64,000 bases of DNA from Candidatus Moraniibacteriota bacterium. Lineage in GTDB: Bacteria; Patescibacteriota; Minisyncoccia; Moranbacterales; UBA1568. Shown one piece after another: positions 1 through 8,731 of the stretch. Each line of letters opens with the position of its first letter. Position 1 is the stretch's first letter. The stretch is from assembly GCA_028711705.1 (NCBI GenBank), contig JAQTRS010000002.1, positions 73,617 through 137,616 of the forward strand. Reading direction: 5' to 3'. The notes beneath the pieces are model-generated. The model made no database searches. It was not told the DNA's origin and saw nothing but the letters and a program-made list of their open reading frames with translations. The position numbers and the translations under genes were made by a program.

Positions 1-756
1 CCCGAGGTCGTGCGCGAAACGCAGCCCGTGATAGCTCGCCTCCGGTTCATTGAAGAGCGAAAATTTCGCATCGGTCCAATCGAATTTCCCTGCATCGACA
101 ACGATGCCGCCGATGGCCGAGCCATGCCCGCCGATCCACTTGGTCAATGAATGGATCACCACATCGGCACCGTGCTTGATCGGCTGCAGAAGCGTGGGCG
201 GGGTGAAGGTCGAGTCGACTATCAAGGGTAGCCCTGCCTCGTGCGCGATTTTCGCGATGGCCTCGATATCCGCCACCTCGAGCGCCGGATTGCCGATGGT
301 TTCGATGAATACCGCACGCGTTTTTTCGGTGATGGCTTTTTTGAAGGCCTCGTGATCATGCACGTTGACGAAACGCGTCGTGATGCCGAATTGCGGAAGC
401 ACGCTTTTGAACATCGTGTGCGTCCCGCCATACAGATTGCTCGCCGAAACGATTTCGTCCCCCGCCCTGCAGACGTTGATGATTGCATAGAAGATCGCGG
501 CCGTTCCCGATGCGACCGCCACCGCCGCCACCCCGCCCTCAAGCTCCGCGATGCGCTTTTCCAAAACATCCGTCGTCGGATTCATGAGGCGGGTATAGAT
601 ATTGCCCAATTCCTTGAGCGCGAACAGATCGGATGCGTGCTTGGCATTCTTGAACACATACGACGTCGTGCGATAGACCGGCACGCCACGCGAAAGGGTT
701 GTCGGTTCCGGCACTTGGCCTGCGTGAAGCGATGAAGTCTCGATACTGTTTGTCAT
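1..756 (-). CDS. metY: O-acetylhomoserine/O-acetylserine sulfhydrylase (MetY/CysD family, PLP-dependent); runs off the left window edge
   Basis: Not in ORF track. Manual translation from ATG 756 gives MTNSIETSSLHAGQVPEPTTLSRGVPVYRTTSYVF...ELGNIYTRLMNPTT and the PLP-lysine motif VIHSLTKWIGGHG near 121-160. Confidence 0.92.
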   Translation of the reverse strand, partial: MTNSIETSSLHAGQVPEPTTLSRGVPVYRTTSYVFKNAKHASDLFALKELGNIYTRLMNPTTDVLEKRIAELEGGVAAVAVASGTAAIFYAIINVCRAGDEIVSASNLYGGTHTMFKSVLPQFGITTRFVNVHDHEAFKKAITEKTRAVFIETIGNPALEVADIEAIAKIAHEAGLPLIVDSTFTPPTLLQPIKHGADVVIHSLTKWIGGHGSAIGGIVVDAGKFDWTDAKFSLFNEPEASYHGLRFAHDLG

Positions 757-787
757 ACGATTATAGTGAGATGGATGAAAGAGATAC

Positions 788-811
788 AAAAAAGCTCAGG
801 TCCGTCCTGAG
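788..811 (-). terminator. Intrinsic terminator (attenuator) in the metY leader
   Basis: Minus strand CTCAGG-ACGGA-CCTGAG followed by CTTTTTT, about 30 nt upstream of the metY ATG. Confidence 0.75.
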
Positions 812-845
812 AGTTCTTTCTTCATCTGCTATAACCGTGGCAGTT

Positions 846-950
846 CTACCAAAACCATAGCGAAAGAATCCTCGAGGATGACCCGAGCCTAGGCATTATG
901 CAGCACACTGTCTGCGTATTCACATAAGACATATTCTTTCTTTTTTCCAT
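846..950 (-). CDS. Putative leaderless leader peptide 2, MEKRKNMSYVNTQTVCCIMPRLGSSSRILSLWFW (34 aa)
   Basis: ATG lies 6 nt after the -10 box; tandem TGC TGC at 905-900 sits just before the 5' arm of the antiterminator. Confidence 0.65.
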   Translation of the reverse strand: MEKRKNMSYVNTQTVCCIMPRLGSSSRILSLWFW

Positions 951-956
951 ACTTGC

Positions 957-985
957 ATACTAACACTCCTCCCCACCCCACGCAA
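957..985 (-). promoter_or_regulatory. Sigma70 promoter for leader 2/metY
   Basis: TTGCGT(985-980), 17-nt spacer, TAGTAT(962-957), with extended -10 TGn. Confidence 0.65.
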
Positions 986-998
986 GGGACCTGTTTCA

Positions 999-1790
999 TT
1001 AGATGATATGCCCCCGCTGCGTATGCGTCCGGATATCGATTTCCAGCAGGGTATGATTCGGCATCGGCCTCCACATCGATTCCGGAACGTCCAACTTTTC
1101 CGAGCAGACCGCCATGACTTTCCCTTGGCTATTCATCGCCACATAGAGGGACAGATACTCGAACGAGCAACTCCCTTTGACGAGGGCATTCCTCTCATTG
1201 ACCTCACGCAATGCCCAGAGCTTTTTCCCGTCGCTCAGCAGGATATTGAGCGCCACATAATCATGATGCTGCCGTATATACGCGACCGTATCGATGATGC
1301 CGGCGCGGATATTTTTCGGATCGCCGGATATTTTCCGCAGATTACCCATAATGGAGAGGAAAAGGCGCTCCGTATCGCTCGTGCCCCGGACACAGGCCTT
1401 CATTTCTTCGGAAAGCGGAATGCTTTCGCTCCCAAACAACGTACCATTATGACACAGGCTCCAGTTATCGAGCAAAAACGGATGCGTGTTTTCCTCGGCG
1501 ACCGCTCCGATCGACTGCTTGCGAAGATGGACCATGCTAAGCTCCGGCACCTCCGCGCTTATTTTTTCCACCACCTGCCCATAGGAACTGTCCTTGGAAG
1601 CATCGGTCGCCCTCTTCGCTTTCTGAACAACCCGTCCATCCCGATAGCACACCATCCCCCATCCGTCCCGATGACCCGCCTCACTTCCCTCCATAACAAG
1701 ACCGCTCTCGGCGAGCGATCCGAATTGAATGAGCGTCGTTGCGAGGGAAAGCTTGGGCAATTGCTGTGTGAGCGCTAGTATACGGCACAT
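999..1790 (-). CDS. Class II glutamine amidotransferase-like Ntn hydrolase (YafJ/EgtC/Dug3 family)
   Basis: N-terminal MCR nucleophile Cys; H-x-DGWG, HLRK, NTHPF, HNGT and TSDTE motifs. Confidence 0.85.
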   Translation of the reverse strand: MCRILALTQQLPKLSLATTLIQFGSLAESGLVMEGSEAGHRDGWGMVCYRDGRVVQKAKRATDASKDSSYGQVVEKISAEVPELSMVHLRKQSIGAVAEENTHPFLLDNWSLCHNGTLFGSESIPLSEEMKACVRGTSDTERLFLSIMGNLRKISGDPKNIRAGIIDTVAYIRQHHDYVALNILLSDGKKLWALREVNERNALVKGSCSFEYLSLYVAMNSQGKVMAVCSEKLDVPESMWRPMPNHTLLEIDIRTHTQRGHII

Positions 1791-1809
1791 ATGTTCGATA
1801 TTAACAATG

Positions 1810-1837
1810 AAAAAGCCGATCCTTGTGAGACCGGCTT
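1810..1837 (-). terminator. Intrinsic terminator (attenuator) upstream of the Ntn hydrolase
   Basis: Minus strand AAGCCGGTC-TCACAAG-GATCGGCTT-TTT. Confidence 0.75.
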
Positions 1838-1862
1838 CGTATTATCATCAAAAGGATAACCT

Positions 1863-1949
1863 TTACTTTCCTGACAACAACGACAAACCGGTCTCACACA
1901 TACAGTTGAAACAGCTACGCATCGATTGTCGGGAAAAATAGGATTTCAT
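1863..1949 (-). CDS. Putative leaderless leader peptide 1, MKSYFSRQSMRSCFNCMCETGLSLLSGK (28 aa)
   Basis: ATG lies 6 nt after the -10 box; Cys codons 13, 16, 18 and Met codons 10, 17; the ORF overlaps the antiterminator strand 1898-1885. Confidence 0.7.
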   Translation of the reverse strand: MKSYFSRQSMRSCFNCMCETGLSLLSGK

Positions 1950-1955
1950 ACCGAA

Positions 1956-1984
1956 AGAGTATCATGAAAAGAATCGGGTGTCAA
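1956..1984 (-). promoter_or_regulatory. Sigma70 promoter for leader 1
   Basis: TTGACA(1984-1979), 17-nt spacer, TACTCT(1961-1956), with extended -10 TGn. Confidence 0.75.
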
Positions 1985-2164
1985 GGGAAACGTCTTAAAT
2001 TCCATTCTGAATCGCAATCACCCAGAAAGCAAATCAGATGTCTTGTATGTATGGTTTCGGAGTATTAAGATAAAATTTTCTCTGATTTTTATCTGTTGAA
2101 TATGAAAAGAGGGAGCAAATAATATTACTCCCTCACTCAGACATCACCACTCCCATGATAACCC

Positions 2165-2731
2165 TCAATAGACAGGGATTTTTTTAAAAACGCTCCGCAT
2201 AGGATTATCGATTGAAACTTCCATATCATCCATCGCTTGACGAATATCGTGTTCAACAATTTTCTTAACATCACGCAAAGACGCCAATACCGCAACGATC
2301 AGCGGCACTTGCCGAGCCAATAATCGAAACACGTCAGATTCCATTCCGCCGATTGATACCAGTCTCGAATACGCCATGATACTCATATCTATGTAGTATC
2401 GGGAACCGACGTACTGAACGCGCCTGGAATTCGGAAATAATCCGGCTAAAAGCCAAGACCAATCGCCAAGACCCTGGAGGCGCGCATGAAGCAAATGATA
2501 TCCATCTGCCAACATCACATGAGTATAGTGCTCATAAGCGTAAAAATTGACCGTCGCCTCATACGATTTCAAATCTCGCAAAAGTACCAACTCGACATAA
2601 TTTTTCGCATAAAGCTCCAAATGCTTCCCAACCCGATCCTCACCAAGAGCGATGATTTCGGAAAATGAACTTTCTTGAACTAACATGAGATTTACTCCCT
2701 TGAAAATGAACTGCAAAAACACGCTACGCAA
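2165..2731 (-). CDS. Hypothetical protein
   Basis: 188-aa ORF followed by a terminator-like hairpin at about 2106-2134; no recognisable motif. Confidence 0.55.
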   Translation of the reverse strand: MRSVFLQFIFKGVNLMLVQESSFSEIIALGEDRVGKHLELYAKNYVELVLLRDLKSYEATVNFYAYEHYTHVMLADGYHLLHARLQGLGDWSWLLAGLFPNSRRVQYVGSRYYIDMSIMAYSRLVSIGGMESDVFRLLARQVPLIVAVLASLRDVKKIVEHDIRQAMDDMEVSIDNPMRSVFKKIPVY

Positions 2732-2849
2732 CCGCCTGTAGCTATGCGGTTATCATATATATATGACAACTTCGCATTGTATCACAATATTTATATTTTG
2801 TCCAGTACTCAAAAATCCACCGGGGACACCGGCGAATTTTCGGACTTTG

Positions 2850-2923
2850 CGGGAGCGACGGGACTCGAACCCGCGACCTTCTGCGTGACAGGCAGACGCT
2901 CTAACCAGCTGAGCTACACCCCC
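2850..2923 (-). tRNA. tRNA-Asp(GTC)
   Basis: GGGGGTGTAGCTCAGCTGGTTAGAGCG...CTGTCAC...GGTTCGAGTCC cloverleaf. Confidence 0.95.
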
Positions 2924-3026
2924 AAATTTTCCTCTTTTCCCCTTGGCACAAACAAAAAACACTCTTATTAAGGAGTGTTTCTATTGTAGGGTAAAACTAT
3001 CTTTTCGTCAAATACCGTTTTATCGC

Positions 3027-3659
3027 TTATCTGGACGGCTCAGGCTCCCCGAAATCGAGTCCGAAACGCTTCTCTACCCAGTCCAAAATGCCCGGGATGA
3101 TATTGAAGACGATCGGGAAAGCATACAGGAAAAGCGCGGCCGGGATGGATATGAAAACCATCGCCATGCCCAAGGCGGTCATGATCGGCGTTAGGGCTAC
3201 GCGGATGGTCGACTGCCTGATCCGGCGTGCCGAAACGTGCTCCGTATCGATTTCGTCGGACACGAGGGCATAGCGGAGCATGATGTAGTTCACGACGCCC
3301 AAAAGGAAAATATGAAGGCCATAGAGAACGACCGCAAGCTTGGTATGAGCATAGCTTCCCAGCATATGCGTCGAGAACGGCACGAAGGCCATCAGGGCCA
3401 GATAGGCCATATTGATCTGGATCATGATGCGGTTGACGTTTTTCGTGAAGATATGGAAGAGCTTGTTATGCGACACCCAGAACATATCCAGCACGATAAA
3501 GCTCACCAGGTACGCAAGGAATTCCGGCGCGAGCTTGGTGAGTTCCTGCGAAAGCGATATCCCCTCTTTGAATTCAGGGAGGCGGAATTCAACCGCCAAG
3601 ATGGTCATGATAATGGCGAAGGCACCATCCAAAAGAGCTTCGAGTCGGTTCTTATTCAT
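3027..3659 (-). CDS. TMEM175-family potassium channel
   Basis: RLEAxxDGxFAIxxT N-terminal motif, FWxSH, about 6 TM helices; start refined to MNKNRL. Confidence 0.85.
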   Translation of the reverse strand: MNKNRLEALLDGAFAIIMTILAVEFRLPEFKEGISLSQELTKLAPEFLAYLVSFIVLDMFWVSHNKLFHIFTKNVNRIMIQINMAYLALMAFVPFSTHMLGSYAHTKLAVVLYGLHIFLLGVVNYIMLRYALVSDEIDTEHVSARRIRQSTIRVALTPIMTALGMAMVFISIPAALFLYAFPIVFNIIPGILDWVEKRFGLDFGEPEPSR

Positions 3660-3773
3660 GGGGATATCGATAAAAATAAATGATGGCAAGCATATGCATA
3701 GTATATCATGCTCCCTATTTCGGGATACAAAAAACTGCCGGGGGCAGTACTGAAGAAAACTATGGCATTATGA

Positions 3774-3850
3774 TGGTAGCAGGAGAGAGATTCGAACTCT
3801 CGACCTCGGGCTTATGAGTCCCGCGCTCTAACCAACTGAGCTATCCTGCC
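3774..3850 (-). tRNA. tRNA-Met(CAT), probably elongator
   Basis: GGCAGGATAGCTCAG...CTCATAA...GTTCGAATC...ACCA; paired 1:72. Confidence 0.9.
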
Positions 3851-3857
3851 AAAATGA

Positions 3858-3928
3858 CAATAACCAATGACCAAAATCCAATCATCAAAAGAGCTTATCT
3901 TGATTATTGGAGCCTGATTATTGGTTAT
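3858..3928. repeat. Period-7 imperfect hairpin repeat between tRNA genes (copy 1)
   Basis: CCAAT-type heptamer units mirrored by ATTGG units; 30/33 nt identical to 49691-49723. Confidence 0.6.
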
Positions 3929-3936
3929 GTATAAAT

Positions 3937-4011
<75 letters not shown>

Positions 4012-4189
4012 ATATATCTACCGCTTCGTTTCAATCACTCATGATCAACATCTGAACGCCGATTACCCATAAGCGATACTCTGCTAAGAGTATCACACAA
4101 AAACCCTACTGTAAAGACCTGGACCATCGTAGTCTTTGCGGAAATCGGAATTTGGTTATTGGTCATTCCGAGCATGAAGCGCGGACTTG

Positions 4190-4263
4190 TGGGTGATCCA
4201 GGACTCGAACCTGGGACCTCGACATTATCAGTGTCGCGCTCTAACCACCTGAGCTAATCACCC
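4190..4263 (-). tRNA. tRNA-Ile(GAT)
   Basis: GGGTGATTAGCTCAGGTGG...CTGATAA...GGTTCGAGTCC. Confidence 0.95.
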
Positions 4264-7764: not shown

Positions 7765-8217
7765 CTAGTTTTCTTCTGCTACCACTTCGATCGAGCCCCC
7801 GGCTTTCTCAATGGCGGCTTTCGCCGTTTCGGAAACCAGAAGTCCGGATGCAATGGTAAGTTTTTTTGTGAGCGTTCCGCTGGAAAGGATCTTGATACCG
7901 TTCTTGACCAAGGATTCCTTGATCAGGCCTTTCGCGACCAAAGTCTCGGAAGAAACGACCTCGCCGTTCGAAAACCACTTCTCCAGAGCCGTCAGATTGA
8001 ATACCGACTTCCTCGGATGGATGGACTTAAAACCGCGAACCTTCTTCAAGTGATCCACCAAGGAAGAACGCCCTCCTTCGAACAACGGATCGACATTGCC
8101 ACCGGAACGGGCCTTCTGACCCTTCATTCCGCGACCGGAATACGTTCCGCGCTTACCTCCGCGTCCGATACGCTTCGAGCTCTGCTTTTTTGGAACACTG
8201 AGTTCATGAATCTGCAT
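7765..8217 (-). CDS. rplO: 50S ribosomal protein L15
   Basis: GRGMKGQKARSG and FEGG motifs. Confidence 0.97.
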   Translation of the reverse strand: MQIHELSVPKKQSSKRIGRGGKRGTYSGRGMKGQKARSGGNVDPLFEGGRSSLVDHLKKVRGFKSIHPRKSVFNLTALEKWFSNGEVVSSETLVAKGLIKESLVKNGIKILSSGTLTKKLTIASGLLVSETAKAAIEKAGGSIEVVAEEN

Positions 8218-8236
8218 AAAACTGAAAAACAATAAA

Positions 8237-8731
8237 TTACTTCTTCGCTTCCGGGCGCGGTGCGCGAGGAGCCTTGAGCTCCCTTAAGGCCTCGATAGTA
8301 GCACGTGCCACATTGAGCTTGTTGGATGCGCCCAAAGACTTCGAAACGATGTCCTTGATGCCTGCCAAGTCCACAACGGAACGGACAGCTCCGCCGGCGA
8401 TAACGCCGCGTCCTTCGGCAGCCGGCTTCAGGAGCACCTTCGCGCTTCCCAATTTCTTGAAAACGTCGTGAGGGATGGTCGTTCCTGCGATCTTGATATC
8501 GATAAGATTCTTCTGAGCGTCATTGTATGCCTTCTGAATGGCATCCGAAACATCGGATCCCTTCGAAACGCCTACTCCCACCTTGCCCTTGCGATTGCCG
8601 ATAACAAGCGTCGCTCGGAAGCGGAATCTTCGACCGCCCTTTACCACGCGGGTCACGCGAGCCAGATCCAAAAGCTTCTGATCGAACTCGGGCTTTTCTC
8701 GTCTCCCAAATTTTTTACCTTGTTTTGCCAT
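8237..8731 (-). CDS. rpsE: 30S ribosomal protein S5
   Basis: RVTRVVKGGRRFRF; abuts rplO with no rpmD between. Confidence 0.98.
   Translation of the reverse strand: MAKQGKKFGRREKPEFDQKLLDLARVTRVVKGGRRFRFRATLVIGNRKGKVGVGVSKGSDVSDAIQKAYNDAQKNLIDIKIAGTTIPHDVFKKLGSAKVLLKPAAEGRGVIAGGAVRSVVDLAGIKDIVSKSLGASNKLNVARATIEALRELKAPRAPRPEAKK

Follow-up and report, generated by a model that had tools for sequence, protein, structure and literature searches.

Two neighbouring genes in a 64,000-nt stretch of DNA from a Candidatus Moraniibacteriota bacterium (Patescibacteriota; contig JAQTRS010000002.1; the whole stretch is called the window below) are each preceded by a compact unit of 140-160 nt that combines a predicted promoter, a short upstream open reading frame (uORF) with clustered Cys and Met codons, and an intrinsic terminator. 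Unit 1 precedes a gene for a class II glutamine amidotransferase (GATase), and unit 2 precedes metY, which encodes a member of the O-acetylhomoserine/O-acetylserine sulfhydrylase family. We consider it likely that these are two independently derived, classical leader-peptide attenuators in which Cys codons lead the sensing and Met probably contributes; for unit 2, at the least, we regard an attenuator function as highly probable. The host genome comprises 1.16 Mb in 21 contigs and is rated 99.5% complete.

All elements lie on the minus strand, and the architecture that the first-pass annotation had described as occurring twice in series was found with every listed element in place, base for base. 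Predicted promoter 1 (1956..1984) has a perfect -35 hexamer TTGACA (1984-1979), a 17-nt spacer ending in TGA, and a -10 box TACTCT (1961-1956) that matches the consensus at 3 of 6 positions; transcription is predicted to start at about 1949, which would make the message leaderless. uORF1 (1863..1949) runs for 28 codons from the ATG at 1949 to TAA at 1865-1863, with Met10 followed by CFNCMC at codons 13-18 (Cys13, Cys16, Met17 and Cys18). In the minimum-free-energy fold, region 1 (1907..1937), the anti-antiterminator strand, pairs with region 2 (1868..1898) when the RNA is ribosome-free; region 2 is the antiterminator, and its first 14 nt pair with the 5' arm and loop of intrinsic terminator 1 (1805..1838), which consists of an 11-bp stem (1838-1812) and a U tract. 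The GATase gene follows at 999..1790. In unit 2, predicted promoter 2 (957..985) has the -35 hexamer TTGCGT (985-980), a 17-nt G-rich spacer ending in TGT, and the -10 box TAGTAT (962-957), with a predicted leaderless start at about 950. uORF2 (846..950; 34 codons from the ATG at 950 to TAG at 848-846) carries VCCIM at codons 15-19, that is, Cys16, Cys17 and Met19. Region 2 of this unit (871..890) pairs with the whole of intrinsic terminator 2 (787..811; a 6-bp core stem at 811-795 followed by CTTTTTT) or folds on itself (887-871). metY (1..756, continuing past the start of the window; 424 aa; PF01053) comes next. Both leaders thus share a -10 box with a TG extension, a 17-nt spacer, and an ATG 6 nt past the -10 box, and a Shine-Dalgarno sequence is absent before both enzyme genes. 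That the two leaders are otherwise unrelated in sequence, as had been proposed, was borne out by a local alignment score of 19 against a shuffle 95th percentile of 21, and neither had a relative by blastn elsewhere in its own genome or in the related loci collected.

Both leaders fold better than shuffled sequences (z of -3.75 for leader 1 and -3.61 for leader 2). The leader:terminator duplex reached -29.4 kcal/mol in unit 1 and -22.0 kcal/mol in unit 2, values equalled in 0 and 2, respectively, of 1000 dinucleotide shuffles. The register of the switch was examined with a mask model, in which a ribosome footprint is moved codon by codon and terminator pairing is computed at equilibrium. Ribosome-free unit 1 adopted the region 1:2 pairing together with the terminator (0.9). 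With the A site at codons 4-15 of uORF1 the terminator fell to about 0, codon 16 was borderline, and from codon 17 onward it was about 1. Ribosome-free unit 2 formed a long antiterminator; the terminator was about 0 with the A site of uORF2 anywhere through codon 20, and 0.7-1.0 at codons 21-29. The read-through range therefore takes in Met10, Cys13 and perhaps Cys16 of uORF1, and Cys16, Cys17 and Met19 of uORF2.

Cys makes up 0.74% of the residues in this genome, and at least two Cys and one Met codon per six stop-free codons were found in 0.13% of 365,933 such stretches outside called genes, a background count for which the pattern was chosen post hoc and in which gene calls cover 78% of the genome. 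A promoter-anchored scan of the whole genome returned 129 intergenic promoter-plus-start sites, 66 of them with an ORF of 8-60 aa and 12 of those with a terminator; among these 12, a sharp switch behind a Cys/Met cluster occurred only in units 1 and 2. The genome scan for promoter, Cys-uORF and terminator units that the first-pass annotation had suggested thus gave these two and no third Cys/Met-cluster unit. One other switch-like site, at C9:210610 on the minus strand, has a short Arg-rich frame with no Cys or internal Met, a weak terminator and a gradual rise; the ORF that follows it may encode pyruvate kinase.

Natural variation was available for leader 2. The metagenomic run X1, possibly the source of this genome, also contains lower-depth contigs of related sequence, one of which (924 nt, depth 3.7) matches part of metY (546-726) and of leader 2 (788-906); further contigs match the GATase gene and a 173-aa ORF upstream of it. 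Over 788-906 there were 17 substitutions and 4 gaps. Eleven of the substitutions are placed, all in the spacer at 828-861, and the four indels are confined to 827-839, on the 3' side of the stop codon. The substitution at 846 makes the stop TAA instead of TAG, so that its position is kept. The Cys codons mark the precise start of the alignment, and the six remaining substitutions, all near the alignment ends, leave at most six changes for the Cys codons, region 2 and the terminator, so that the Cys codons of the homologue may themselves have changed. Read by hand, the loose end of the contig is colinear, stop-free over codons 6-15 and about half identical, and its codon 7 is not Met. The homologue, a single contig, is consistent with the pattern expected of an attenuator.

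Several points weigh against two working attenuators. The transcript starts and ends of both units are predictions from sequence, and a consensus scanner that called both leader terminators called neither promoter, so that promoters 1 and 2 are plausible rather than strong. Promoter 2 is the weaker, with a poor -35 (3 of 6) and a G-rich spacer, and terminator 2 is weak as well (core stem -7.4 kcal/mol). Only a minority of the genes in this genome appear to be leaderless: an extended -10 stood at the 6-nt offset before 10 of 518 genes, compared with about 2 at other offsets. Met17 and Cys18 of uORF1 fall beyond the read-through range. At unrestricted equilibrium the terminator is lost again with the ribosome near either stop, because region 2 is released behind it, and the model therefore needs kinetics or local refolding; when pairing across the ribosome was excluded with the stop in the A site, both terminators formed and region 2 of unit 2 folded on itself. 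We infer such a kinetic step, in which no pairing would occur across a ribosome near the stop. Leader 2 has only the one homologue, on one low-depth contig of a run that is possibly the source of the genome. Leader 1 had none in a DNA search of 106 family genomes, did not precede the 3 full-length GATase genes of the order, and was not seen in the metagenomic GATase loci looked at (42 of 80). In the mask model, the Cys-rich metY leaders from outside the Candidate Phyla Radiation (CPR), considered below, gave no switch in L058 and a weak one in L090. Finally, shuffled leaders produced some switch in 2 of 40 trials for unit 1 and 8 of 40 for unit 2, and a switch alone is therefore weak evidence, especially for unit 2.

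These shuffles, along with the 12 promoter-ORF-terminator units that arise in the genome by pattern alone, would also be expected if both leaders were ordinary terminators accompanied by chance short ORFs and chance complementarity. Such an origin would, however, require duplex strength, a clustering found in 0.13% of stretches, register, adjacency to a sulfur enzyme and the conservation pattern to coincide twice, and constitutive terminators directly before both genes would silence them; we regard it as very improbable.

The weak match of promoter 2 raises the question of whether unit 2 has a promoter of its own. An alternative ORF of 12 codons led by a perfect Shine-Dalgarno sequence (920..972, minus strand; GGAGGAG at 972-966, ATG at 958) sits inside promoter 2, out of frame with uORF2, and ends in Cys-Leu-Met. 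Only RNA that reads through from unit 1 would allow its use, and there it might recouple or bypass unit 2. Were unit 2 transcribed by such read-through alone, the ATG 958 frame would leave its antiterminator on and the two units would act as one gate. The terminator scan called nothing from the GATase stop to 985; ATG 958 has GGAGGAG 7 nt upstream, and the anti-Shine-Dalgarno sequence is present at the 3' end of the host 16S rRNA; the frame stops before region 2. In contrast, the related contig keeps the uORF2 frame, its stop and the segment from the Cys codons to the terminator, and its codon 7, not being Met, points to a start further upstream in the uORF2 frame; moreover, the 17-nt and 6-nt spacings are identical to those of unit 1. 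A single gate is improbable on this evidence. A TATAAT at 765-760 was considered as an internal metY promoter and judged unlikely: it lies only 3 nt before the ATG, and none was found in the 30 post-terminator letters of the related contig, where the stretch differs.

Stalling attenuation that needs no riboswitch had been claimed for this locus, and that part of the claim is supported by the folding, the shuffles, the leader 2 homologue and the Rfam results. Covariance models searched over 1-4200 with E up to 5 matched only tRNAs, with no riboswitch, SAM riboswitch or T-box, and there was no Rfam match on 7 or on 20 related loci. It is doubtful that a SAM sensor would serve this genome, in which MetK was not found by its family model. 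The leaders could still belong to an undescribed class of RNA that binds a metabolite or a protein, with uORFs that are incidental, given that both fold far better than shuffles and that undescribed riboswitches are by nature absent from Rfam. Yet the folds amount to simple alternative hairpins, the part of the homologue that has changed most is the spacer, where an aptamer could sit, while the reading frame is kept, and the switch point falls on Cys/Met codons in both units. We regard binding RNAs as very improbable.

The gene behind unit 1 belongs to the GATase_4 group of Ntn hydrolases (YafJ/EgtC/Dug3-like; PF13230, E 2e-19). Its product begins Met-Cys and resembles YafJ-like structures (PDB 1te5, 3mdn). 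Against the EgtC model TIGR03442 it scored 54 bits, far below the curated cut-off of 219, and by this measure it is not EgtC of the ergothioneine pathway; the cleavage of gamma-glutamyl-thiol bonds that had been attributed to it is thus no more than an extrapolation. Two homologues adjoin a GCS2-type ligase (L093, identified by Pfam, and L153, whose ligase is 52% identical to that of L093), a weak hint of gamma-glutamyl chemistry. In L093, from a genome of the same order, a long structured 5' region (3115-3450, minus strand) lies between a TTGACA promoter and the GCS2-GATase pair; it had no Rfam match. A full-length GATase homologue was present in 3 of 300 other genomes of the order. In a same-genus genome (G001:C3:70170-70304; L096) a stop-interrupted C-terminal remnant of the gene lies close to a tRNA-like fragment, which suggests that the gene has been gained and lost. 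The closer protein homologues were 46-64% identical, and those from a metagenome alignment scan only 27-38%; a metagenome pattern scan with the GATase protein gave 92 pattern matches, none of them confirmed.

A candidate separate extended -10, TG-T-TAATAT (1798..1806, minus strand), lies 7 nt before the GATase ATG at 1790 and offers a possible bypass of unit 1. Unit 1 might then be vestigial or circumvented, with the GATase gene expressed from its own leaderless promoter, an arrangement compatible with a working unit 2. By eye, several GATase homologues lack a uORF and carry a box of this kind 6-7 nt upstream of the start codon, and the absence of a leader 1 homologue from the searches described above agrees with a bypass. 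The box itself, however, has no TTG -35, and leader 1 shows none of the erosion that decay would bring: it is intact, its -35 is perfect, its duplex is the stronger of the two, and its 1:2/2:3/3:4 design is complete. We therefore consider a bypass unlikely, though it deserves to be kept in mind.

MetY passes its family model TIGR01326 (636.5 bits; curated cut-off 495), and its best NCBIfam matches were homocysteine synthase and TIGR01326. The family models for GCS2, PALP/CysK, MetX, MetA, MetE, CysE, MetH, MetK and Rho found no member in this genome. With its pathway partners not found, MetY appears to be an orphan that would need imported O-acetyl substrates, and with no Met synthase (neither MetE nor MetH) the useful product would be Cys, or Met by way of methanethiol; this reasoning rests on the known chemistry of MetY.

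Leaders of like design but with Met codons occur in other Patescibacteria and speak for the attenuator reading. The metA-metY operon of G574 is preceded by TTGCAT, a 17-nt spacer and TATAAT; after 7 nt comes a uORF of 15 codons with Met-Met, followed by antiterminator and terminator. Among the 101 genomes around G574, metA was present in 8, and a Met-run uORF with a terminator preceded 7 of these, at about 90-300 nt before metA (L105-L110 and L112, from G574, G704-G707, G719 and G749). In four of the seven, which come from one genus and are therefore not independent, 7 nt separate the -10 box from the ATG. All seven leaders switched at or just after the Met run in the mask model, and regions 2, 3 and 4 changed together in L108, a three-way compensation read directly from the alignment. 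They keep MM or MMM; Cys6 is not conserved, and Cys is lost in L107 and L108. In G574 (L105, about 1430-1500) a tandem 7-nt repeat, ACTACCA, lies between the attenuator and metA and is shorter in relatives. G374, a CPR genome with metY, had no leader.

Cys alone, as had been proposed, may not be what is sensed: the read-through range also takes in Met10 of uORF1 and Met19 of uORF2, and the CPR metA leaders keep Met and not Cys. One could envisage that both attenuators sense mainly Met-tRNA, with the Cys codons secondary, as those metA leaders appear to do: MetY is classically a Met-pathway enzyme, and if a shortage of Met blocked initiation, unit 2 would stay on. On the other side, the permissive range of each uORF holds a single Met as opposed to Cys in tandem or repeated; in the metA leaders about 9-11 nt separate the last Met from the start of the antiterminator, a spacing that in unit 2 fits Cys17 and not Met19; and without MetE and MetH homocysteine could not become Met. 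We consider sensing mainly through Met decidedly improbable.

What could be read directly is the anatomy of the units, the pairing strengths, the register and the one natural homologue of leader 2. The attenuators that we favour, led by Cys, would work as follows. Transcription would start at the uORF ATG, and a ribosome would follow the polymerase. With ample Cys the ribosome would run onto region 2, no antiterminator would form, and transcription would end at about 1806 in unit 1 or about 788 in unit 2. A stall at Cys13 of uORF1 (also at Met10 and, as a borderline case, at Cys16) would leave region 2 free to capture the terminator arm, as would a stall at Cys16, Cys17 or Met19 of uORF2. The polymerase would then read into the amidotransferase-like gene or metY when charged tRNA-Cys, and probably tRNA-Met too, is scarce. 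Unit 1, with four regions as in trp, would be off as long as no ribosome is bound. The default state of unit 2 would be on, and switching it off would require a translating ribosome. Since the enzymes for making the MetY substrates or completing Met were not found, the gene pair would serve salvage, for instance of Cys, from host-derived O-acetylserine and sulfide or from gamma-glutamyl-Cys, or alternatively of Met, from O-acetylhomoserine and methanethiol.

This arrangement is not a lineage regulon, and in that respect the first-pass annotation went too far: a single genome among 319 of the order has metY, no third unit was found, and the upstream region of cysS in this genome has no such leader. 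TIGR01326 scored above its cut-off in 3 of 401 genomes of the phylum, and the locus is accessory, confined to this organism and one close relative. In a tree of 143 MetY sequences (FastTree, midpoint root) the enzyme grouped with non-CPR enzymes (L012, L022 and L053; support 0.86), and both the remaining CPR MetY and the non-CPR MetY with leaders lay far away in the tree; no leader of the unit 1 or unit 2 kind was seen directly before L012, L022 or L053. Leaders preceding other Cys/Met PLP enzymes of the class were sought at 29 loci, from 55 other genomes with a match, and none was found. In L130, from a genome of the same class, a structured leader about 330-170 nt before a PF01053 gene has a short MCC frame and then a terminator behind it; it looks SAM-I-like and had no Rfam match at the gathering score.

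In other phyla, a Cys-cluster uORF with a terminator preceded metY at 2 of 78 loci with enough upstream DNA. Such non-CPR leaders, with CCMC-type or CACMCCCM-type uORFs and terminators, were seen in L090/L143, L239 and L058, and the GCCMCSVPGR leader recurs at the metY locus of L239, a Kiritimatiellae relative, with a clean switch. The Kiritimatiellae-centred metY search gave a leader at 2 of 30 loci (30 of 54 matches had loci), and the Auribacterota-centred search gave nothing convincing at 30 loci (from 38 matches).

The classical leader-peptide transcription attenuators are trpL, hisL, thrL, leuL and pheL, and they are summarised by Canestrari et al. (bioRxiv 10.1101/834739). Units 1 and 2 resemble them in having a uORF with clustered cognate codons (the link to the gene being clear for metY and inferred for the GATase), an intrinsic terminator between uORF and gene, a mutually exclusive antiterminator that overlaps the 3' part of the uORF, and a switch point that falls, in the equilibrium mask model, directly after the sensing codons; in unit 1 all four regions of the classical layout are present. 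They differ in their Cys/Met codons, the predicted leaderless start, the two unrelated copies on adjacent genes, the default-on state of unit 2, the Patescibacteria host, and downstream genes that do not form a complete pathway.

The same preprint describes polycysteine leaderless small ORFs in mycobacteria that act in translational control (a 'Cys ribulon'), and for the case studied attributes this to Shine-Dalgarno sequestration, stated not to be transcription termination. The likenesses are a leaderless uORF (predicted here), Cys codons, sulfur-related targets, independent origin at several loci and no transcription factor; here, however, 2-3 Cys codons are combined with intrinsic terminators, in place of a polycysteine tract that gates a Shine-Dalgarno sequence. 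The pairing of a Cys-codon uORF with an intrinsic terminator had already been predicted by Brewer et al. (2021; PMC8632094) as uORFC-8-2 before Rhodobacterales cysS, where tandem Cys codons, usually at positions 14-15, precede the terminator. By that description uORFC-8-2 differs in lineage and target (GATase and metY here, where cysS lacks such a leader), and the passage on it does not mention a leaderless start. Units 1 and 2 belong to neither the mycobacterial nor the uORFC-8-2 family. Cys-run leader peptides also precede cys operons in Actinobacteria; Seliverstov et al. (2005; PMC1262725) report no conserved terminator hairpins there and suggest Rho, which was not found in our genome. Leader peptides may arise repeatedly, according to PMC2965389.

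The CPR metA leaders share the phylum and the classical design of units 1 and 2; they differ in having Met runs instead of Cys clusters, in showing no sequence similarity by blastn, and in a MetY that is far away in the tree. We found no paper on them. The literature searched, with most subscription papers and supplements outside its scope, held no Cys-codon attenuator in Patescibacteria and no case of attenuation in CPR, in agreement with the first-pass annotation, which knew of no description; the available portions of PMC12641261 and PMC13434334 likewise held nothing on CPR attenuation. Nor did the search return a terminator-type Cys attenuator with experimental support, the Rhodobacterales case being a prediction. 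The mechanism itself is already known; the host and the paired layout appear to be undescribed.

The gene order on the minus strand is a tRNA cluster, the 173-aa ORF with its terminator, leader 1, the GATase_4 gene, leader 2 and metY, followed outside the window by a serine-hydrolase gene. The terminator of the 173-aa ORF, called by a terminator scan at 2109..2134 (minus strand), insulates unit 1, so that terminator 1 is not the end of that ORF. The ORF itself (region 2165-2804, minus strand) has its own promoter and terminator, a lower GC3 (0.45) and no Pfam or NCBIfam match; an 11-codon frame containing Cys and Met precedes it at about 2777 (minus strand), and a stable switch was absent in folding. 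A binning artefact was judged unlikely, given the 211-kb contig, the adjoining tRNA and ribosomal-protein genes, and a GC3 like that of housekeeping genes; one contig of run X1 covers 1-2681 with zero differences. Elsewhere in the window, rpsE is directly followed by rplO (7765-8731), and no uL30 ORF was seen at the 60-aa listing threshold, a gap typical of CPR.

Patescibacteria are generally seen as having little amino-acid synthesis and little regulation. A bolder proposal, which we offer only tentatively and hold to be possible but not probable, is that two leaderless Cys attenuators were built from scratch, in series, around horizontally acquired sulfur genes, so that an episymbiont without Cys/Met biosynthesis would read its own level of Cys-tRNA charging and turn on host-sulfur salvage, and that leaderless attenuation, the Met-type leaders included, has been invented recurrently across CPR. 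The units are compact and suited to direct in vitro testing. The codons of an attenuator hint at gene function, and here they would link both the YafJ/EgtC-like hydrolase and the orphan MetY with the supply of Cys and Met. If the attenuators work, close coupling of transcription and translation together with leaderless initiation would be required in these cells, and some Patescibacteria would be monitoring their supply of sulfur amino acids.

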